This document shows positions 51,575 through 62,104 of a stretch of 64,000 nt of DNA, in pieces; position 1 is the first letter of the stretch; every line of letters starts with the position of its first letter. Under the pieces are notes generated by a model that had not been told where the DNA came from, did not search any database, and saw nothing but the letters and a program-made list of their open reading frames with translations. This DNA is from an uncultured Gemmatimonadaceae bacterium. GTDB taxonomy: Bacteria > Gemmatimonadota > Gemmatimonadetes > Gemmatimonadales > Gemmatimonadaceae. The translations under genes and the position numbers were made by a program. Location of the stretch: the NCBI GenBank assembly GCA_963740355.1, contig CAVUDW010000002.1, forward strand, positions 864,001 to 928,000, given 5' to 3'.

Positions 51575-53527
51575 TTGCCGTTGCACGCGCGCTGGCTGTT
51601 GGTTGCTGGCGCGTGTGTTGCCGTTTCGAGTGGCGCGGCACAACGCGCCCCCGCACTGACGGACGGCGAACGCGTCGTCCGTCGCGTCGACTCGCTCTGG
51701 TCCGCTGCTGCGAGCCGACAGACGCGCTCTGACAGTGGATTGCCTGGGCCCCGCTACTGGGTGCAGGGCGCGCGATACGAACTGCGCGCCACGCTCGACC
51801 CGGGCACGCGGACGCTGTTTGGCGAAGGGCTGCTGCGCTATCGCAACCGATCGCCAGACACCCTGCGAACGTTGGCGCTGAGCCTCGCGCAGAATCTCTT
51901 TCGCGCCGGTGCACCTCATGACGAGGCGGTACCCGTCACTGGTGGGATCATCCTCGAGCGGTTCTGCGTCGCGCGTGAGTCGCGCGCACCAGGCGGACGG
52001 TTGTGTGGCGGCGAGAGCACGAGCGCCGTGTCACCGGCGCTCCGAGTCGACAACACCATCGCATGGCTGACGTTGCCAGTGCCCCTGGCCCCTGGTGATT
52101 CCGTCGATGTGCGCGCCAACTGGCGTTTCGTGATTCCGCCGCGCGATGCGCCGCGGATGGGGACGGATGGCAGTGTCACGATGGTCGGATACTGGTATCC
52201 CCAATTCTGCGTCTACGACGACGTGGCCGGGTGGGAGACGGATCCCTACCTCGCCACCGGCGAGTTCTACATGGATCACGCCGACTACGATGTGCAGGTC
52301 ACCGTGCCGGGTGGGTTCCTCGTCGCGGCGACCGGCGTGCTGCAGAACCCGGCCGAGGTATTGTCGCCGTCCGCCCGCGAGCGACTGCAGCATGCGGCGC
52401 GCAGTTTCGCCGCCGTCACCATCGTCAATGACAGCCTGCGTCGCGCGCACGCTGCGACGACACCGGGCACCGTCGCGACCTGGCATTTCGTGGCCAATGA
52501 CGTGCGGGATTTTGCCTTCTACACCTCGCGTGAGGTCGTGTGGGATGCGATGGCGGCCGTCGTGCCGCGCGCCGGTGCACCGGCCGTGTCCGACACCATC
52601 CTGGTGCACGCGTTCTATCGACCGCGCGAAGCGAGTTGGCGGCGCGCCGCAGACTACGGGCGCCAGAGTGTCGAGGCCTTCTCGCATCTGCTCTGGCCCT
52701 ATCCGTGGCCCCAGCTGACGCTGGTGGAGGGCATCGTGGATGGCGGCATGGAGTACCCGATGCTGACGGTGGTGTCGGTGGGCAGCGACGGTCGCGAATT
52801 GCTGTCGACGATAGCCCATGAAACCGGACATATGTGGTACCCGATGCAGGTCGGCAGTGACGAGCGCCGATTTGCATGGATGGATGAAGGCATCGCAAGC
52901 TGGCTGGAACGTGTGCTGCTGCGCGCCAGCTCTGGTCATGATGACGATGAGGAGGCGGTGCCCGATCTCTATCGCACCGTGACGGGCATGCGCGCCGAAC
53001 AACCGATGCTCACGCACGCGGATCACTACAACGGAGCGCTCACCTATACCGCCGCGAGCTACGACAAGCTGGTGGTGGTTTTCCGGGCGTTCAGTGCCGA
53101 GTATGGTGATTCAGCGCTGGTGCAGGGGCTGCGGGCGTACGGTGCCGCATGGACCGGGCGACATCCGTATCCACCGGACTTCTTCCGGATGGTGTTCGCG
53201 CGCGCTGGCGCGGATCGCGATGTATTCGTGCGCGAATGGATGCGGGGGACGGGACACTTCGATGCGCGCATCGACGATGTGGTGCGCCTGCGTGACACGC
53301 TCACCGTGACGATCCGATCGAGTGGCGGTGCACATCTTTCGGTGCCCGTGGTGGTGAGTCGTGATGGTGAGGCGAGTGAACGGGTCGTCATTCCGGCCGC
53401 CGACTTTCGCAGGGATTCGGTGCAGGTGGTCCGGATTGCAGGAGCGCGGTCGGTCCGATCCATCGTGCTCGATCCTGATCACACGAGGCCCGATGTGAAT
53501 ACCGCCAACCAACGCTGGGCACCATGA
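51575..53527 (+). CDS. M1-family zinc metallopeptidase, exported
   Basis: GGMEYP, HETGH...WMDEG (HEXXH-X18-E). Confidence 0.9.
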   Translation: MPLHARWLLVAGACVAVSSGAAQRAPALTDGERVVRRVDSLWSAAASRQTRSDSGLPGPRYWVQGARYELRATLDPGTRTLFGEGLLRYRNRSPDTLRTLALSLAQNLFRAGAPHDEAVPVTGGIILERFCVARESRAPGGRLCGGESTSAVSPALRVDNTIAWLTLPVPLAPGDSVDVRANWRFVIPPRDAPRMGTDGSVTMVGYWYPQFCVYDDVAGWETDPYLATGEFYMDHADYDVQVTVPGGFLVAATGVLQNPAEVLSPSARERLQHAARSFAAVTIVNDSLRRAHAATTPGTVATWHFVANDVRDFAFYTSREVVWDAMAAVVPRAGAPAVSDTILVHAFYRPREASWRRAADYGRQSVEAFSHLLWPYPWPQLTLVEGIVDGGMEYPMLTVVSVGSDGRELLSTIAHETGHMWYPMQVGSDERRFAWMDEGIASWLERVLLRASSGHDDDEEAVPDLYRTVTGMRAEQPMLTHADHYNGALTYTAASYDKLVVVFRAFSAEYGDSALVQGLRAYGAAWTGRHPYPPDFFRMVFARAGADRDVFVREWMRGTGHFDARIDDVVRLRDTLTVTIRSSGGAHLSVPVVVSRDGEASERVVIPAADFRRDSVQVVRIAGARSVRSIVLDPDHTRPDVNTANQRWAP

Positions 53528-54570
53528 GCGCGGGCGCACTGCGATCGCGTACGATCGAGCGCCCGCTGGCGCGCCCTCGGTATCGCGAAGTGGTGGCGGC
53601 AACGCGCGCTGCCGTGCGTGCACTCGTGGCCTGCCTGCTGTGCGTGGCACTCGATCCACAGCGCGCTGTGGCGCAGCCGTCGCCGCCGCGTGCGGGGTGG
53701 CGGCTGGTGTGGCAGGATGAGTTCAACGGCACCGCGATCGACACCACCAAGTGGAGCTTCGACCTCGGCAACGGCTTCACGACCGACAGTGGCGCAACGT
53801 TCGTCAGCGGCTGGGGCAACAACGAGCTGCAGTGCTACACGCGCGATACCGCGAACGCGTTCGTGTCCGCGGGCCGATTGCACATTCGCGCGCTCCGCTC
53901 GACTGGCGAGGGATGTCCATTCACGTCGGCGCGGCTCACGACGCGTGGTGCAAATGGGCGCGCGCTGTTTGCACAGCGATACGGGCGGTTCGAGTTTCGC
54001 GCTCGCCTTCCGCTCGGTCGCGGCCTCTGGCCTGGGCTCTGGATGCTGCCGCAGGACAACGCGTATGGCACGTGGGCGGCATCTGGTGAAATCGATGTCA
54101 TGGAGGCGCGCGGTCAAACACCCTCGACCGTGCTTGGCACGCTGCACTATGGCGCGCGCTATCCGCACAACGCCTTCACCAGCGCGGATTACGTCCTGCC
54201 GCGCGGTGGCAGCATTGCGGACTTCCACCTGTATGCCGTGGAATGGGAGCCGGGCCGGATTCGATGGTCGGTGGATGGCGTGCTGTACCAGACGCAGTCG
54301 TTTTGGTGGAGCAGCAGTGCTGAAGCAGGGCGGCAGGGTGTGCTGCCCACGTCGGAGGCGTCGCTGAATGCGTGGCCGGCGCCGTTCGACAAGCCGTTCT
54401 ACCTGCTGATGAATCTTGCGGTCGGCGGCAACTTCCTCGGGGCGCCGGACGCGACGACGCCATTCCCGGCCGCGATGGAAGTGGATTTCGTGCGGGTCTG
54501 GACGCGCCGGCGCGACGCGACGGATCTGGCTCCGCGTGGGGCAGGGATTCTGCCGTGGCAGCGGAAGTAA
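53524..54570 (+). CDS. Glycoside hydrolase family 16 (beta-1,3-glucanase-like)
   Basis: WQDEF, GWGNNELQ, catalytic EIDVME, PFDKPFYLLMNLAVGG. Confidence 0.92.
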   Translation: MSAGALRSRTIERPLARPRYREVVAATRAAVRALVACLLCVALDPQRAVAQPSPPRAGWRLVWQDEFNGTAIDTTKWSFDLGNGFTTDSGATFVSGWGNNELQCYTRDTANAFVSAGRLHIRALRSTGEGCPFTSARLTTRGANGRALFAQRYGRFEFRARLPLGRGLWPGLWMLPQDNAYGTWAASGEIDVMEARGQTPSTVLGTLHYGARYPHNAFTSADYVLPRGGSIADFHLYAVEWEPGRIRWSVDGVLYQTQSFWWSSSAEAGRQGVLPTSEASLNAWPAPFDKPFYLLMNLAVGGNFLGAPDATTPFPAAMEVDFVRVWTRRRDATDLAPRGAGILPWQRK

Positions 54571-54740
54571 TCGCGGCCCTTTTCGCTGAAAAACCGTAGA
54601 AACTCCGACGAAAGAGTTTTTAAGCGGTTACAGCGTATGTGTTCGAGGCTTGATTCGGGCTTCAGTAACCCAAAGCCAGTGGTGTCAGTGGTTTACGGGC
54701 GATGTCCGGTACATCGAGGGGTGGTGCCGGCCGGCGTAAC

Positions 54741-54784
54741 TGTCAATAAAAGTTGACACTCGAAGTTGACAACAAAGCTTGACA
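54741..54784. promoter_or_regulatory. Tandem PpsR/CrtJ-type operator boxes upstream of pucB
   Basis: TGTCAATAAAAGTTGACA (54741-58, perfect TGT-N12-ACA) and TGACAACAAAGCTTGACA (54767-84), 8 bp apart; the second ends in a TTGACA -35 hexamer. Confidence 0.8.
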
Positions 54785-54936
54785 CCAACGATCCCGGGCG
54801 CAGAATAGGTCTGTGATTCCGAGTTGCAGAAACACGAGCTAAGCGGAGATCACGTAGCACGGTGCATGGCTACTCGAGCCATGGTCCCCCAACGTGCGGG
54901 TCAAGCACGGTTGTTCATTGCTCCAGGAGAATCGTT

Positions 54937-55095
54937 ATGGCTGATAACGATCCAAACCGCGTCTGGCCGTCAGGCCTGACCACGCGGGAAGCTGAGGAGT
55001 TGCACGACGGTTTGAAGCAGGGCACGCGCATCTTCGGTGCGATCGCGATTGTGGCTCACATCCTCGCGTTCATCAATACTCCCTGGCTTCACTAG
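54937..55095 (+). CDS. pucB: Light-harvesting complex 2 beta chain
   Basis: SGLT..EAEELH...GTRIF.......AH......TPWL; His41 BChl ligand, Arg at -10; AGGAG RBS. Confidence 0.95.
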   Translation: MADNDPNRVWPSGLTTREAEELHDGLKQGTRIFGAIAIVAHILAFINTPWLH

Positions 55096-55107
55096 AGGGC
55101 TACACAC

Positions 55108-55341
55108 ATGAACGAAGGAAAAATCTGGACCGTCGTGAAGCCGTCCGTTGGCGTGCCGCTGTTCCTTGGTGGCGTGACGGTGATTGCACTGCTCGTCCAC
55201 GGTGCACTGTTGCTGAAGACTGACTGGTTCGGCGCCTACTGGAACGGTGGCCCGAAGGCTGTGGCAACCGCCACGGTATCGGCACCGGTGCAGACGGCAC
55301 CTGCGGCCGCGACTCCGACTGCGGCGCCAACCACGCCGTAA
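55108..55341 (+). CDS. pucA: Light-harvesting complex 2 alpha chain with Ala/Pro/Thr C-terminal extension
   Basis: [12 protein letters not shown], His31, Trp40, Tyr44-Trp45. Confidence 0.95.
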
Positions 55342-55367
55342 TGGCGTTGCTGGTCCGCGAGTCTTGC

Positions 55368-55397
55368 TAGGGGCCGGGATACCAATCCCGGCCCCTA
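55368..55397 (+). terminator. Intercistronic pucA-pucC stem-loop (mRNA stabiliser or partial terminator)
   Basis: Perfect 13-bp stem TAGGGGCCGGGAT/ATCCCGGCCCCTA, loop ACCA, no U-tract. Confidence 0.7.
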
Positions 55398-55466
55398 CGT
55401 CGCTGGCGGCGAGCACAACGCGGGACAAGTTTGGTCCACGCACTTCGCCCCCCATGCCCTGACCCG

Positions 55467-56870
55467 ATGAATCTCAACCGGAAGCTCGTACAGACGTGGG
55501 CCGAACTGGGGCCGCGCTTCCTGCCGTTTGCCGATGTCGCCACCAAGGAGTTGCCGCTCTCGCGCCTCCTCCGCCTGTCGTTGTTTCAGGTGTCGGTCGG
55601 CATGGCGTCGGTGCTCCTCATCGGTACGCTCAATCGCGTCATGATCGTCGAGCTTGGCGTGCCGGCGTCGCTGGTGGCGATCATGATCTCGTTGCCGTTG
55701 ATCGCGGCGCCCTTTCGCGCGCTGATCGGGTTCCGCTCCGACACCCATGTCTCGGCGCTGGGCTGGCGGCGCGTGCCGTACATCTGGAAGGGCACGATGC
55801 TGCAGTTCGGCGGCCTCGCGATCATGCCGTTCGCGCTCCTCGTCGTCTCGGGCGGGAACGGCCTTGGCGCTCCGGACTGGATTGGCCAACTGGGTGCCGG
55901 CCTCGCCTTCCTGCTGGTGGGCGCTGGACTGCACACGGTGCAAACCGTTGGCCTCGCGCTGGCGACGGACCTGGTGGCGGAAGAGCAGCAGCCGAAAATC
56001 GTCGGACTGATGTACGTCATGCTGCTCGTGGGCATGATTGCCAGTGCGATCATCTTTGGCGCCCTGCTCTCGAACTTCACGCCGGCCAAGCTGATTCAGG
56101 TGATTCAGGGCGCTGCCGTGGTCACCATCGCGCTCAACATCATTGCGATGTGGAAGCAGGAGGCGCGCGATCCGAACAAGACGCGCGAAGGGCGCGAGGA
56201 ACCGAGCTTCCGCGAATCATGGGACAACTTCACGCAGGGTGAGGGCGCCATTCGACGGTTGATCGCCGTCGGTGTTGGCACGATGGCGTTCAGCATGCAG
56301 GACGTGTTGCTGGAGCCGTACGGCGGTCAAGTGCTGAACCTGACTGTCGCGTCGACCACGCGCCTGACGGCCACCTTGTCGCTCGGTGGGCTGATCGGTT
56401 TCCTGCTCGCGTCGCGTGTGCTGGGTCGGGGCGGCGATCCATTCAAGATGGCGTCGTACGGCGCGCTGGCGGGAATCCCCGGCTTCTCGTTCGTGATCTT
56501 CGCCGGGCCGCTGCATTCGGCACTAATCTTTTTCGCGGGTACCTTCCTGATCGGCTTCGGCGGCGGTCTGCTCAGCCACGGCACGCTGACGGCGACGATG
56601 AACCACGCGCCGGAGAAGCAGCGCGGGCTGGCGCTGGGCGCCTGGGGGGCCGTGCAGGCGTCGGCAGCGGGCATCGCTGTCGCCTTCGGCGGAATCGCCC
56701 GCGACGTGGTGAACGGCATGAGCGCACGCGACGTGTTCGGGCACGCGCTCTCCGGTCCTGCGACCGGCTATACGCTCGTCTACAGCCTCGAAGTCGTGCT
56801 GCTGGTGGTGACGCTGGCCGCGATGTTCCCGCTGATTCGCCGTCCAGTGACGGAACGCGTCACGGCCTGA
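55467..56870 (+). CDS. pucC: PucC LH2 assembly factor (BCD-family MFS)
   Basis: LPFADVAT.ELPL.RLLRLSLFQ, GTLNRVMIVEL, GWRRVPY, QDVLLEPYGG, ALGAWGAVQA. Confidence 0.93.
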   Translation: MNLNRKLVQTWAELGPRFLPFADVATKELPLSRLLRLSLFQVSVGMASVLLIGTLNRVMIVELGVPASLVAIMISLPLIAAPFRALIGFRSDTHVSALGWRRVPYIWKGTMLQFGGLAIMPFALLVVSGGNGLGAPDWIGQLGAGLAFLLVGAGLHTVQTVGLALATDLVAEEQQPKIVGLMYVMLLVGMIASAIIFGALLSNFTPAKLIQVIQGAAVVTIALNIIAMWKQEARDPNKTREGREEPSFRESWDNFTQGEGAIRRLIAVGVGTMAFSMQDVLLEPYGGQVLNLTVASTTRLTATLSLGGLIGFLLASRVLGRGGDPFKMASYGALAGIPGFSFVIFAGPLHSALIFFAGTFLIGFGGGLLSHGTLTATMNHAPEKQRGLALGAWGAVQASAAGIAVAFGGIARDVVNGMSARDVFGHALSGPATGYTLVYSLEVVLLVVTLAAMFPLIRRPVTERVTA

Positions 56871-56934
56871 CGCCTCGCGCAGCGAAGGCGACTCGCCCGA
56901 GCCGTGATCGACCGCGTGCGCGCAGGGTGCAGGA

Positions 56935-56971
56935 CAAGAATCGGGCGGCCACCAGTGGGTGACCGCCCGAT
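56935..56971 (-). terminator. Terminator hairpin between convergent pucC and gyrB
   Basis: ATCGGGCGG.CACC/GGTG.CCGCCCGAT stem, followed by TCTTGT on the minus strand. Confidence 0.65.
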
Positions 56972-57000
56972 CAGGTTACAGCCGGCTGGCTCGCGTCAGG

Positions 57001-59025
<2,025 letters not shown>

Positions 59026-59266: not shown

Positions 59267-62104
59267 TTGGGCTCAACTCTCCCGGTCGGTACGCCGACCC
59301 TCACAGGGACAATGGCTCTCCCACCCACGCCCCCGTGGTCGGCGTCCGATGTCGCTCCCATCAGCCCACCCGCGATGGCGTGCGATGCCGACCCCGACCA
59401 GAGCAACGCGTTCGTTCGTCGACTGACCGCAGCGGTTGGAATGGCGGGCGTCGCGGGCGTGGGGATGGCCCTCGCCGCCGGCGCGGCGCCGCTGCCCGAG
59501 GCCGGAGGACGGGTCCTCGCGCTGACGGCCGTCGCGCTCTGCATCGCCGCCGCCGCCGTGCCGGTCGGCCTGCTGATTCAGGATCTCCGCGTGGATGCGG
59601 GCGTTCGGAGCTCGTGGCTGTTGATCGCAATCGGCGTCATGCTGCTGGCGCTGGGCCACCTGGCAGGCATGCAGCGACTCGGATCGGCCAACCCGATGGC
59701 GGCGCCACTCGATCTCGCGTTCCACCCCGTCCTGTTTCTCGCGATCGCAACCCTGCCGTGCGGGATGCGGACGGCGAGTGAGCGGTTCCGGGTCTTGCTC
59801 GACGTCTTCATCACCGCCGGTGCCGCCACGGCGCTGACCGTGGCCCTGCTCGCCGGCGGATTTCACACCGCGGAGGCCGTCGCCCCCGGCGTGCAGCCGA
59901 TCGTGGCCATCGTGGCCGACGCGGTCCTCGTCGCAGCGGTCGCAATGCTCTGGCTGCGCGGCATGGTGTCGACGTGGCGTGATCCGCTCGCACCGCTGGC
60001 GGCCGCGTGTCTCCTGCACCTCGCGCTGCAACTGGCGTCCGGACTGTCGGAGGCGGCGTCGGTGCAGCAGGCGATTCAGGCGTTGGCCCTGCTGCCGTTT
60101 CCACTCATCGGCCTGGCCGCGATTCGCCAGCGCGCGAGACTGCGCACAGGCCAGCTGTTCTGCGGGCGCCCGCGTCGGTTGTCGCTGCTCCCCACGCTGG
60201 CTGCGGCCGCGCTCCTGCTGGTGCTCCTGCTGGGCGTGATGGTGGGACGCGGCATGGGAGCAGGGGTGCTCGTGGCCGCTGCGCTGGTCAGCCTTGGCGC
60301 GCTATTGCGGCAGGTGCTTGGCATTCGCGACGAAATCGGTGCACGCGAACAGAGTGCACTCGAACAGGCGGATCGCCGGCTCGCGGCGCTGGTGCGGCAG
60401 GGCAGCGACATGCTGACGATCCTCGACGCCAACACCGAAGTGCGGTACGCCAGTCCATCGCATCTGCAGGTCATGGGCATTCCACCAGAGATGCTCGTAG
60501 GGCGGCGCATGGCGGACCAGATCCATCGCGATGACTTCCCCGCGGCGGAGCAGGGGTTTGCGCGGCTGCTGAGCGGAGACTCGATGCGCGAGGCACTGGT
60601 GGTGCGACTGCGCGACTCCACCGGAGCATGGCGCTGGGTGGAAGCCGTGGGGACGAATCTCTTCAATGAGCCGACGGTTGGTGGGCTGGTGCTCAACAGT
60701 CGCGACATCACGGATCGCAAGCAGCTCGAGGCACAGCTGATCGAGCAAGCGCTGCGGGATCCGCTGACGGGGCTTGGGAATCGGCGGCTGTTCGCGGATC
60801 GTGTTTCGCACGCCCTCGATCGACGGCTCCGTCGCAGGACGCAGGTCGCGCTGCTGCTGCTCGACCTCGACCACTTCAAGTTCGTGAACGACACGCTCGG
60901 CCACGCCAAGGGGGATGCGTTGCTGGTGGGTGTCTCCGAGCGCTTGCTGGCCGTGCTGCGAACTGGCGACACGGTGGCGCGGCTTGGCGGTGACGAGTTC
61001 GCCGTGCTGCTCGAGGATCTCGCCTGTGACGAGGAGGCCGATGCCACCGCACTGCGCATCCAGCACGCCCTCGAACGGCCGTTCCGCCTCGACGAACGTG
61101 AAGTGTTCGTGCGCGCCAGCATCGGCATTGCCTGGGCGACGGACGGGCAGGATGTCGATTCGTTGCTCACCGACGCTGACGTGGCGATGTATGGCGCAAA
61201 GAATTCCGGGCGCGGTCGCGTGGAGCGTTATTCGAGCGAGATGCGTGCCCGCGTCGCCGAGCGGCTCGATCTCGAGGCCGACCTGCGCTTCGCCCTCGAA
61301 CGTGGTGAGCTCGATCTCGTCTACCAGCCCGTCGTCGACCTGCGCACAGGGTGCGTGAGCGGGGCTGAGGCACTGATCCGGTGGACACATCCGGAACACG
61401 GCATGATCCTGCCAGGCCGCTTCATTCCAGTGGCGGAGGAGTCGGAGCTGATCATCGACATCGGCCGGTTCGTGATCAGGCGCGCGGCCATGGACGCGGC
61501 ACGGTTCCGAGCGGCTTGCCCGATGACGGCACGGTTGCGTGTCGCCGTCAACCTCTCGGCGCGTCACCTGTTGTCGCCGGACCTCGTTGACGACGTCACG
61601 AAGGCGATGGACGCGGCGGGCATCGTCGGCTCGGCGATGGCCGTGGAATTGACAGAGTCGGTGCTGGCGTCGAATGAGCCCGTGGTGGCCGGCCGCCTGC
61701 AGGGCCTGCGCGATCTTGGGCTGCGGATTGCGCTCGACGATTTCGGCACCGGGTACTCATCGCTCGCGTACTTGCGTCGCTTCCCGATCGATGTCCTCAA
61801 GGTGGACCGAAGCTTCGTGTCGTTCGGCCAGAGCGACTCGGCGAACGACGGCGTGACGAAGGCGATCGTGTCGATCGGGCAGAGCCTCGGCATGCGTACC
61901 ATTGCGGAGGGTGTCGAGACGCACGAACAGCTGGAGCGATTGTGGAACATCGGCTGCTCACTCGGGCAGGGCTATCTCTTCTCGCGTCCCGTAGATCGGG
62001 AAACGTTTGCGGCGCTGATGGTGGCCTGGGATCCGAGCGAGTACTGCGCCGACCCGACGCGCGATCGCCGCGAGAATGCGTCGAGCGTGGAAGCGGTGAC
62101 CTGA
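59267..62104 (+). CDS. Membrane-bound PAS-GGDEF-EAL c-di-GMP enzyme
   Basis: Multi-TM N-terminus, PAS (IHRDD...WRW...RDIT), intact GGDEF, EAL and DDFGTGYSS; start uncertain. Confidence 0.92.
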   Translation: MGSTLPVGTPTLTGTMALPPTPPWSASDVAPISPPAMACDADPDQSNAFVRRLTAAVGMAGVAGVGMALAAGAAPLPEAGGRVLALTAVALCIAAAAVPVGLLIQDLRVDAGVRSSWLLIAIGVMLLALGHLAGMQRLGSANPMAAPLDLAFHPVLFLAIATLPCGMRTASERFRVLLDVFITAGAATALTVALLAGGFHTAEAVAPGVQPIVAIVADAVLVAAVAMLWLRGMVSTWRDPLAPLAAACLLHLALQLASGLSEAASVQQAIQALALLPFPLIGLAAIRQRARLRTGQLFCGRPRRLSLLPTLAAAALLLVLLLGVMVGRGMGAGVLVAAALVSLGALLRQVLGIRDEIGAREQSALEQADRRLAALVRQGSDMLTILDANTEVRYASPSHLQVMGIPPEMLVGRRMADQIHRDDFPAAEQGFARLLSGDSMREALVVRLRDSTGAWRWVEAVGTNLFNEPTVGGLVLNSRDITDRKQLEAQLIEQALRDPLTGLGNRRLFADRVSHALDRRLRRRTQVALLLLDLDHFKFVNDTLGHAKGDALLVGVSERLLAVLRTGDTVARLGGDEFAVLLEDLACDEEADATALRIQHALERPFRLDEREVFVRASIGIAWATDGQDVDSLLTDADVAMYGAKNSGRGRVERYSSEMRARVAERLDLEADLRFALERGELDLVYQPVVDLRTGCVSGAEALIRWTHPEHGMILPGRFIPVAEESELIIDIGRFVIRRAAMDAARFRAACPMTARLRVAVNLSARHLLSPDLVDDVTKAMDAAGIVGSAMAVELTESVLASNEPVVAGRLQGLRDLGLRIALDDFGTGYSSLAYLRRFPIDVLKVDRSFVSFGQSDSANDGVTKAIVSIGQSLGMRTIAEGVETHEQLERLWNIGCSLGQGYLFSRPVDRETFAALMVAWDPSEYCADPTRDRRENASSVEAVT

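Follow-up and report, generated by a model that had tools for sequence, protein, structure and literature searches.

A putative LH2 antenna operon, pucBAC, in a genus of Gemmatimonadaceae whose puf operons lack pufA2

Introduction

Phototrophic Gemmatimonadota are the textbook example of photosynthesis transferred across phyla. They are known from two or three cultured species, which surround the reaction centre (RC) with a double antenna ring (RC-dLH), keep a fixed antenna size and show almost no transcriptional regulation (PMC8849296, PMC12817894, PMC11406998). This study concerns a pucBAC operon, which encodes the alpha and beta chains of a light-harvesting complex 2 (LH2) of purple-bacterial type together with a PucC protein, in a window of 64,000 nucleotides (the whole stretch of DNA that was analysed) from an uncultured Gemmatimonadaceae bacterium (GenBank assembly GCA_963740355.1). 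The host genome is coded G000 and its genus g1. The window corresponds to C2:864001-928000, and positions given without a contig are counted within it.

The outer ring of Gemmatimonas phototrophica (LHh) consists of PufA2 and a shared PufB, and the only antenna chains encoded in that genome are PufA1, PufA2 and PufB (PMC8849296). Alpha chains of the PufA2 type are described as carrying Ser15, His29 and Trp31, as being encoded between pufB and pufA1 and as sharing PufB, and the LHh as optically resembling LH2 (PMC12817894). Gardiner et al. (PMC12817894) inferred that pufA2 and the split puhA gene predate the divergence of the genera.

No report of puc genes or of LH2 in Gemmatimonadota was found in the full-text literature searched, which did not extend to subscription journals and supplements. 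Neither puc nor LH2 is mentioned in PMC10581226, PMC8547001, PMC9426454, PMC11271474 or PMC7844134, and no puc gene is mentioned in the accessible text of PMC8779627 or PMC11406998. The accessible part of PMC12817894 names pucBA for Rhodoblastus acidophilus only.

Results

LH2-type antenna genes in a Gemmatimonadaceae genome

The original prediction, made from the letters of the window, described a complete pucBAC operon between a glycoside hydrolase family 16 (GH16) gene and gyrB. Three intact plus-strand genes are found there, colinear in the order pucB-pucA-pucC and recognised by the Pfam families LHC, LHC and PUCC (Table 1). pucC begins 125 nt past pucA, with an in-frame TTG at 55431 as an alternative start, and its product covers positions 1-399 of the 401 of the PUCC profile (PF03209). 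This PucC is 52% identical to the gene-cluster paralogue of the same genome and 30% identical to its LhaA-like paralogue.

PucA and PucB were compared with the chains of all solved structures, with matches listed up to an expect value (E) of 1. The top eleven matches of PucA are all LH2-type alpha chains (E 8.6e-20 to 9.5e-9), led by 7ze8_A (E 8.6e-20) and 7zdi_A (E 1e-19) of Rhodopseudomonas palustris; 1kzu_A of Rhodoblastus acidophilus follows at E 6.5e-19, and the first LH1 alpha chain appears at E 0.029. Similarly, the top nine matches of PucB are LH2 or LH3 beta chains, the best being 7zdi_B of R. palustris (E 5.3e-20), and the first LH1 beta chain appears at E 1.7e-7. The genome's own PufA shows the reverse pattern, matching LH1 alpha chains at E of about 1e-15 to 1e-16. 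A grouping with the ring subunits of Gemmatimonas, which had been named as a point to check, is not observed: against LH2 matches at E of about 1e-19 to 1e-20, the LH1-alpha chain of G. phototrophica (7o0u_aa) matches PucA at E 0.17 and its beta chain (7o0u_BA) matches PucB at E 0.005, while the LHh-alpha chain (7o0u_AA) is not among the PucA matches up to E 1. Judged by these alignments, the window chains are of LH2 type and belong neither to LH1 nor to the Gemmatimonas outer ring.

All six pigment-binding residues named in the original prediction are present at the named positions. Alpha His31, Tyr44 and Trp45 align one-to-one with 1kzu_A, and beta His41, Arg31 and His23 occupy positions 0, -10 and -18 in ungapped alignments, including that with 7zdi_B. 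Because the alignments are ungapped through the core, the six residues are positional equivalents of the B850 and B800 residues. We take alpha His31, Tyr44 and Trp45 and beta His(0), Arg(-10) and His(-18) to be the B850- and B800-site residues of R. acidophilus LH2, in which alpha Tyr44 and Trp45 donate the hydrogen bonds that give absorption at 850 nm rather than 820 nm. The alpha N-terminus, at the B800 site, reads MNEGKIW where 1kzu_A has MNQGKIW.

The G000 assembly comprises 5.45 Mb in five contigs, with an estimated completeness of 94.5%, and the window sits within the 2.55-Mb contig C2. As predicted, the operon stands outside the photosynthesis gene cluster, the genome's only one, which carries pufBALM about 0.55 Mb away on the same contig. 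Besides pufL and pufM, this cluster holds bchP, bchG, ppsR, bchH, bchL, bchM, a second pucC-like gene, puhA, crtB, pufC, bchZYX, bchC, bchD and puhE. Four antenna genes only were recognised by Pfam in the whole genome (pufB, pufA, pucB and pucA), and the reaction-centre family PF00124 was matched only at C2:1468473-1470131. The claim that the window is free of puf, bch and crt genes agrees with this location and with a tblastn search in which 65 open reading frames (ORFs) of the gene-cluster region matched only pucC there, through its two paralogues, apart from one unrelated ABC-ATPase paralogue.

The photosystem genes have the features of the family. The best solved match of PufM is the RC-M chain of G. 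phototrophica (7o0u_M, E 3.6e-165). puhA consists of two pieces (Ht and Hc) on either side of an in-frame stop, one of about 70 aa with the membrane helix and one of 196 aa. The longer piece matches positions 87-261 of the puhA profile; the gene of G. phototrophica is split likewise, as described by Qian et al. (PMC8849296). With pufLMC, the split puhA, bch genes and ppsR all present, a reaction centre and a bacteriochlorophyll (BChl) pathway accompany the antenna operon.

The host assignment is equally consistent. The GyrB encoded next to the operon shares 92-98.7% identity with GyrB of metagenome-assembled genomes (MAGs) whose titles give Gemmatimonadaceae or Gemmatimonadota. Seven further loci (L008, L009, L020, L024, L042, L059 and L074), titled Gemmatimonadaceae, Gemmatimonadota or Gemmatimonadales, show the same gene order, M1 peptidase-(GH16)-pucBAC-gyrB, although not every locus extends to both flanks. 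Furthermore, positions 54537-55307, from the end of GH16 through the upstream region into pucBA, are covered by near-identical short DNA contigs of a second study, no single piece spanning the operon. The contig is thus neither proteobacterial nor chimeric, the two alternatives raised when the locus was first noticed: it is 2.55 Mb long, its GyrB is that of Gemmatimonadota, and the synteny recurs in independently assembled MAGs of other species.

The operon is under purifying selection. Against six congeners, the ratio of nonsynonymous to synonymous divergence (dN/dS) is 0.035-0.096 for pucB, 0.13-0.19 for pucC and 0.25-0.31 for pucA. The same comparison gives 0.02-0.08 for gyrB and 0.16-0.21 for the M1 peptidase gene, and dS of these flanks is comparable to that of the puc genes. 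The combination of gene content, chain type and pigment-site residues suggests, at a probability of about 80%, that pucBAC is a functional operon for a purple-bacterial peripheral LH2 of the B800-850 type plus its assembly factor PucC.

Genus g1 lacks pufA2

In G000, pufB and pufA are separated by 10 bp and pufA and pufL by 115 bp, with no ORF between pufB and pufA. A tblastn search of this genome with two PufA2 sequences, one of them (from genome G184) identical at 54/54 residues to the solved LHh-alpha chain, found only its own PufA, at 30% identity. A survey of 39 puf operons of the family, two of them cut off by contig ends, extended this result. The order pufB-pufA2-pufA1-pufL is found in 20 operons (genera g7, g45, g50, g51, g53, g58, g61 and g63) and the order pufB-pufA-pufL in 17 (genera g1, g31, g39, g66, g73 and g74); pufA2 is missing from all eight informative g1 operons. 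Without it, an outer LHh ring cannot be built as in Gemmatimonas, which strengthens the earlier suggestion of a different antenna architecture.

A single-gene tree of PufL, built from 38 family sequences and five proteobacterial outgroups, places these orders in a phylogenetic frame. It recovers the family as monophyletic (98/94) and, within it, three clades: the pufA2 carriers (98/91), the five other pufA2-less genera (96/89) and g1 (100/100), the last being sister to the rest at weak support (88/48). The simplest reading of this tree is that pufA2 had a single late origin and that a plain RC-LH1 core is the older state. The restriction of pufA2 to one subclade, together with six genera of plain pufB-pufA type, contradicts the published pre-divergence origin of pufA2.

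Two further features of the puf genes were observed. Four loci of genera g61 and g63 (L147, L148, L141 and L149) carry an extra PufA2-like gene upstream, in the order A2'-pufB-pufA2-pufA1-pufL, and so have three alpha genes. The pufM frame of G000 (G000:C2:1467867-1469381; L089:17867-19381, minus strand) encodes 504 aa, about 140 aa more than the RC-M chain of G. phototrophica (367 aa) and about 180 aa more than typical proteobacterial M chains; M-like second matches in other pufA2-less genera also lie in long frames, of 447-699 aa.

Distribution and proteobacterial origin of the operon

Among 301 genomes of the family, 46 carry any PucC-like gene, and puc-type PucC of at least 70% identity is confined to g1. 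PucB occurs in six of the nine g1 genomes (G000, G010, G083, G132, G171 and G201). It is missing from all 37 phototrophic genomes that represent 16 other genera, where the three weak matches (36-43% identity) are PufB. Named records hold eight loci titled as Gemmatimonad, with PucC at 81-84% identity. Because the upstream regions of G083 and L042 are identical, the two sets overlap and the genome and named-record counts are not additive.

A PucC tree of 40 sequences was built by careful search, with six gene-cluster-type paralogues as outgroup. The window PucC falls inside the puc-type clade, which is split from the six gene-cluster-type sequences at 100/100. All ten Gemmatimonad copies, that of G010 included, form one clade (100/100) nested in the proteobacterial puc-type radiation, while betaproteobacterial lineages are unresolved at its base. 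On this tree, all Gemmatimonad copies go back to a single horizontal transfer of the operon from Proteobacteria. A second, independent acquisition by G010 was considered and rejected, as its copy joins the other nine at 100/100. A quick tree with one long outgroup had put the Gemmatimonad copies outside all Proteobacteria; it is superseded by the six-outgroup tree.

The most likely source, judged from chain similarity and upstream motifs, is a Rubrivivax-like betaproteobacterium. The resemblance of both chains to Rubrivivax gelatinosus, noted in the original prediction, was borne out by comparison: outside the Gemmatimonads, the best named match for each chain is strain DSM 1709 (L036), and identities to Rubrivivax are 67-71% for PucB, 65% for PucA overall (72% over its first 50 residues) and 67-70% for PucC. 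The C-terminal tail of PucA, of about 30 residues, is rich in Ala, Pro and Thr. In all seven Gemmatimonad loci for which the upstream region is available, the motif of the second leader hairpin precedes pucB by 38-50 nt. It is found as well in seven Betaproteobacteria/Rubrivivax loci and one Methylobacteriaceae locus, and it is missing in the other 62 of 77 loci. About 162 nt upstream of pucB, betaproteobacterial loci also have a palindrome, TGTCAC-N6-GTGACA.

A pucBAC operon was also seen on a 46.7-kb MAG contig titled Limisphaerales, Verrucomicrobiota (L062); its PucC and that of a Gemmobacter MAG are sisters (100%). This contig is either mis-binned or another case of cross-phylum transfer.

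Expression and regulation signals

The upstream region of the operon carries a candidate palindrome of the PpsR/CrtJ type. Its first base, 54741, is the start of the interval delimited in the original prediction, and two further TTGACA repeats follow it, up to 54784. The palindrome core is kept in eight of ten Gemmatimonad upstream rows, of which those of G083 and L042 are identical and probably represent one genome. The form TGTCA-N8-TGACA occurs at four sites in the 5.45 Mb, namely at pucB, in the ppsR-bchG interval, beside the gene next to ppsR and on contig C3. The last of these, at G000:C3:1640206, is the sole non-photosynthetic copy. The ppsR gene of G000 scores 478.6 bits against a cut-off of 275.4, and PpsR may control pucBAC through the candidate palindrome. 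Since the gene cluster of G. phototrophica is barely regulated, a functional PpsR-type site in front of an antenna operon would mark a clear departure.

A sigma-70-like promoter is predicted downstream of the palindrome. One promoter-like site was found where shuffled sequences give an expectation of 0.2, and both hexamer positions are kept across species. The adjoining leader was considered as a structured RNA and rejected in that role: none of its 15 predicted pairs shows a compensatory change, and it folds no better than shuffles (z 0.57), so that its conservation is one of sequence only. The 136-nt spacer between pucA and pucC, in contrast to the leader, folds at -63.2 kcal/mol (z -3.37), a value that none of 200 shuffles equals, and its stem-loop may, by analogy with other puc operons, act as a partial terminator or an mRNA stabiliser. 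An Rfam scan of 54400-57100 gave one match, on this hairpin, which is below threshold (17.7 bits against a gathering score of 46.7) and a chance match.

Evidence against the proposed reading

Several observations weigh against reading pucBAC as a functional, regulated operon of betaproteobacterial descent. The 800/850 nm absorption and the ring size are predictions from similarity. pucA evolves fast, as its dN/dS of 0.25-0.31 indicates. The last base of the palindrome varies in five of the ten upstream rows, and one perfect TGT-N12-ACA only is found at pucB. The classical PpsR arrangement consists of two such palindromes. In G. phototrophica, PpsR is reported to have little effect on the gene cluster, with one PpsR site found (PMC11406998).

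The operon is, furthermore, dispensable within g1. In three congeners (G257, G280 and G230, with completeness of 96, 90 and 87%), the site is cleanly empty: the M1 peptidase gene, with or without GH16, abuts gyrB across 70-200 bp in which a hairpin of terminator type, but nothing left of the operon, was found. In DNA trees of gyrB (12 rows) and of the M1 peptidase (10 rows), the three genomes branch among the carriers, G257 being sister to L024 (100/99). The proposal that the empty sites represent the ancestral state and prove a late gain was rejected on this mixing, which makes secondary loss the better reading. G010 also lacks the operon at the gyrB site, where it has an unrelated 1.25-kb insert and no pucBAC remnant. 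Its operon lies instead at the edge of the gene cluster (L160 and L161; contigs C14 and C69), between a puhE homologue and MacB-like genes that are 86% and 85% identical to those of the window genome. The G010 PucC is 70% identical to the window PucC, and the assembly breaks inside pucA. L039 shows yet another context upstream of the operon. Most likely, the operon was later lost or moved in some g1 species. As a separate observation, the G171 assembly breaks inside pucB, and the breaks in G010 and G171 may indicate strain variation or extra copies.

The donor assignment also has evidence against it. In the PucC tree, the Gemmatimonad clade is sister to a Gamma- plus Alphaproteobacteria group (95/85), not to Betaproteobacteria. 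Forcing a Gemmatimonad plus Betaproteobacteria clade costs 8.2 log-likelihood units, which is borderline (p-AU 0.0465, with a constraint chosen after the tree was seen). As a separate observation on pucA, the DNA of codons 29-48 of the window gene (55192-55251) is 80% identical to R. gelatinosus and 53-62% identical to congeners, whose pucA has an R. acidophilus-like segment at these codons; the N-terminus and tail of the window gene look congeneric. This segment is either a mosaic or a retained ancestral state.

Alternative explanations

The original inference was that LH2 was gained by a separate horizontal transfer. A transfer from Proteobacteria is supported, and the operon is confined to one genus; a separate arrival is less certain. 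We lean slightly towards a pucBAC operon that arrived after the gene cluster, on its own. The gene-cluster-type PucC of G000 sits on a branch of 2.05, while the stem and tip of the puc-type copy add up to about 0.42. This contrast exceeds that between the paralogues in Proteobacteria and hints that the puc copy is the younger, the alternative being that the paralogues evolve at different rates.

The strongest rival explanation is that the LH2 operon came together with the gene cluster, was kept only in g1, where it moved to the gyrB site, and was lost elsewhere, with pufA2 and LHh as a later replacement in some genera. In Rubrivivax rivuli, only about 5 kb separate pucC (G302:C22:273393-274754) from pufL (267227-268048), and the puc operon stands inside the gene cluster, between the puf genes and the gene-cluster-type pucC (G302:C22:267227-284064; L026, L152, L172 and L176); a Methylobacteriaceae MAG has puf, puc and gene-cluster-type pucC within about 30 kb. 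With puc beside puf in these two genomes, one block could have carried both. The operon of G010 at the gene-cluster edge, between the puhE homologue and the MacB-like genes, would fit such a block; as the G010 PucC is only 70% identical, this position may however be secondary. The single 100/100 clade of the ten Gemmatimonad PucC copies, the place of g1 as first branch of the PufL tree (at its weak 88/48 support), an ameliorated composition (63-65% GC in the puc region against 65% genome-wide) and the demonstrable occurrence of loss within g1 are all compatible with co-transfer. Against it stand the branch contrast in the PucC tree and the absence of the operon from all 37 phototrophic genomes of the 16 other genera, five of which are also without pufA2 and hence without any second antenna. 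Joint arrival is in our view possible but rather unlikely, and a separate, later arrival is the reading that we slightly prefer.

The free-ring character of the predicted complex also has a competitor. The LH2-type chains might form a second concentric ring bound round RC-LH1, as LHh does or as is reported of an LH1-LH2 co-complex from Halorhodospira halophila (PMC11802735). Gemmatimonadota relatives build very stable double rings (PMC8849296, PMC12817894), and PDB 8z81, in which nine LH2-like alpha/beta copies stand beside LH1, matches PucB at E 1.6e-17 and PucA at E 1.6e-16. The best matches are nevertheless the free nonameric LH2 complexes of R. palustris and R. acidophilus, a dedicated beta gene with pucC is the classical free-LH2 arrangement, and no sequence feature favours docking on LH1. 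A bound ring is accordingly improbable, and free LH2 remains the favoured form.

It is more improbable still that pucBAC is a silent or decaying passenger without a light-harvesting role. In favour of such a passenger, three or four congeners have lost the operon. In every carrier examined, however, the three frames are intact, dN/dS is well under 1, and conservation across species takes in the promoter, the palindrome and some 48 nt of the leader but not the neighbouring intergenic DNA. Finally, an assembly or binning artefact joining a proteobacterial fragment to a Gemmatimonad contig, for which no evidence was found, although contigs of two MAGs (G010 and G171) break inside pucBA, can practically be dismissed, given the same junctions in the seven other Gemmatimonad-titled loci, puc dS matching flank dS, unremarkable GC and the near-identical short contigs of the second study over 54537-55307.

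Feature coordinates and neighbouring genes

The features of the locus are collected in Table 1. The presence of GH16 between the M1 peptidase gene and pucB (or gyrB) varies by species (window 53524-54570; L008, L024, L156 and L159), and this spot is a small hot-spot for insertion and deletion. Beyond gyrB and divergent from it, the plus strand of the window encodes at 59267-62104 a 945-aa membrane protein with GGDEF- and EAL-type motifs recognised by eye.

Table 1. Features of the pucBAC locus and its flanks, in window positions. MFS, major facilitator superfamily.
Feature	Position	Strand	Description
M1 peptidase	51575-53527	+	Upstream flank; Pfam
GH16 glycoside hydrolase	53524-54570	+	Upstream flank; Pfam Glyco_hydro_16, E 2.3e-15
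Candidate PpsR/CrtJ-type palindrome	54741-54758		TGTCAA-N6-TTGACA (fits TGT-N12-ACA); 18 bp, 196 nt upstream of pucB
Sigma-70-like promoter	54779-54806	+	TTGACA-16 nt-CAGAAT; 10/12 consensus matches; predicted
Conserved leader	54865-54909	+	Nearly invariant in nine species; includes short hairpins at 54865-54883 and at 54893-54909
pucB ribosome-binding site	54925-54929	+	AGGAG; read from sequence
pucB	54937-55095	+	52 aa, LH2 beta; Pfam LHC, E 6.9e-10, 39.4 bits (cut-off 23)
pucA	55108-55341	+	77 aa, LH2 alpha; Pfam LHC, E 1.6e-13, 51.1 bits (cut-off 23)
pucA-pucC intercistronic stem-loop	55370-55395	+	Strong fold
pucC	55467-56870	+	467 aa, predicted MFS-type LH2 assembly factor; Pfam PUCC, E 6.3e-153
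gyrB	57001-59019	-	Downstream flank, convergent with pucC; four GyrB Pfam domains; taxonomic anchor

Discussion

The analysis suggests how genus g1 may harvest light. In alpha/beta pairs, alpha-His31 and beta-His41 would serve as ligands for two BChl a in strong coupling, hydrogen bonds from alpha-Tyr44 and alpha-Trp45 would shift this pair to the red, to about 850 nm, and one monomeric BChl absorbing near 800 nm would be held by the alpha N-terminus and beta-Arg31. The pairs would assemble into free rings, which are probably nonameric like the closest solved complexes, and hand excitation on to an RC-LH1 core with a single ring, whose genes, pufBALMC, lie some 0.55 Mb away. With neither pufA2 nor an LHh ring, g1 would thus enlarge its antenna by LH2. 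Transcription would start from the sigma-70-like promoter, the PpsR-type palindrome upstream would tie the operon to the photosynthesis regulon, and the pucA-pucC stem-loop may keep the pucBA message above that of pucC.

Taken together, these observations make it fairly probable that g1 runs a single-ring RC-LH1 with a free, PpsR-adjustable LH2, which would be the third independently obtained antenna solution in the phylum. The same reading includes a split puhA ancestral to the phototrophic Gemmatimonadaceae, a single origin of pufA2 and LHh, and six genera with plain RC-LH1. If it is true, this would be the first LH2 outside Pseudomonadota, as far as the literature searched goes. A whole genus without the double-ring gene, and with a classical LH2 operon behind a regulator-type site, predicts a different membrane architecture and an adjustable antenna size. 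The locus also adds a further step of gene flow from Proteobacteria, and opens to study how a foreign host integrates a peripheral antenna.

Among solved complexes, the closest are the LH2 of R. acidophilus (1KZU/1NKZ) and R. palustris (7ZCU, 7ZDI, 7ZE3 and 7ZE8), the top matches (E 5e-20 to 1e-18), with an ungapped pigment core. The window chains have in common with these nonameric complexes alpha His31, Tyr44 and Trp45, beta His, Arg(-10) and His(-18) and an alpha chain that starts MN-GKIW. 7zdi_A carries an Ala/Pro tail too, although that of the window alpha chain is longer and richer in Thr. The solved LH2 complexes are from Alphaproteobacteria, while the window LH2 is known here from its genes. 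The PucC of Rhodobacter sphaeroides, an LH2 assembly factor (PMC4949548), belongs to the same PUCC/MFS family, and the window pucC likewise lies directly downstream of pucBA.

The LH2 of R. gelatinosus resembles the window operon in other respects. Its alpha chain has an Ala/Pro-rich C-terminal extension like that of the window PucA, for which a role in LH2 assembly is reported (PMC5069747), and in Rubrivivax puc loci the leader hairpin motif is as far from pucB as in the window, with a palindrome of the TGT-N12-ACA kind upstream in both. In contrast, pucBA of Rubrivivax lies on the opposite strand, convergent with pucC, whereas the window genes are colinear; the host phylum differs, and the PucC tree does not make the Rubrivivax-type and Gemmatimonad sequences sisters.

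The LHh of G. phototrophica and Gemmatimonas groenlandica (PDB 7O0U and 9H19) occurs in the same bacterial family and does the same job of adding antenna to RC-LH1. It arose by duplication of the LH1 alpha gene inside the puf operon, with the LH1 beta chain re-used (PMC8849296). The window LH2, unlike LHh, has alpha and beta genes of its own, which are of LH2 type, stand outside the gene cluster and have pucC alongside.

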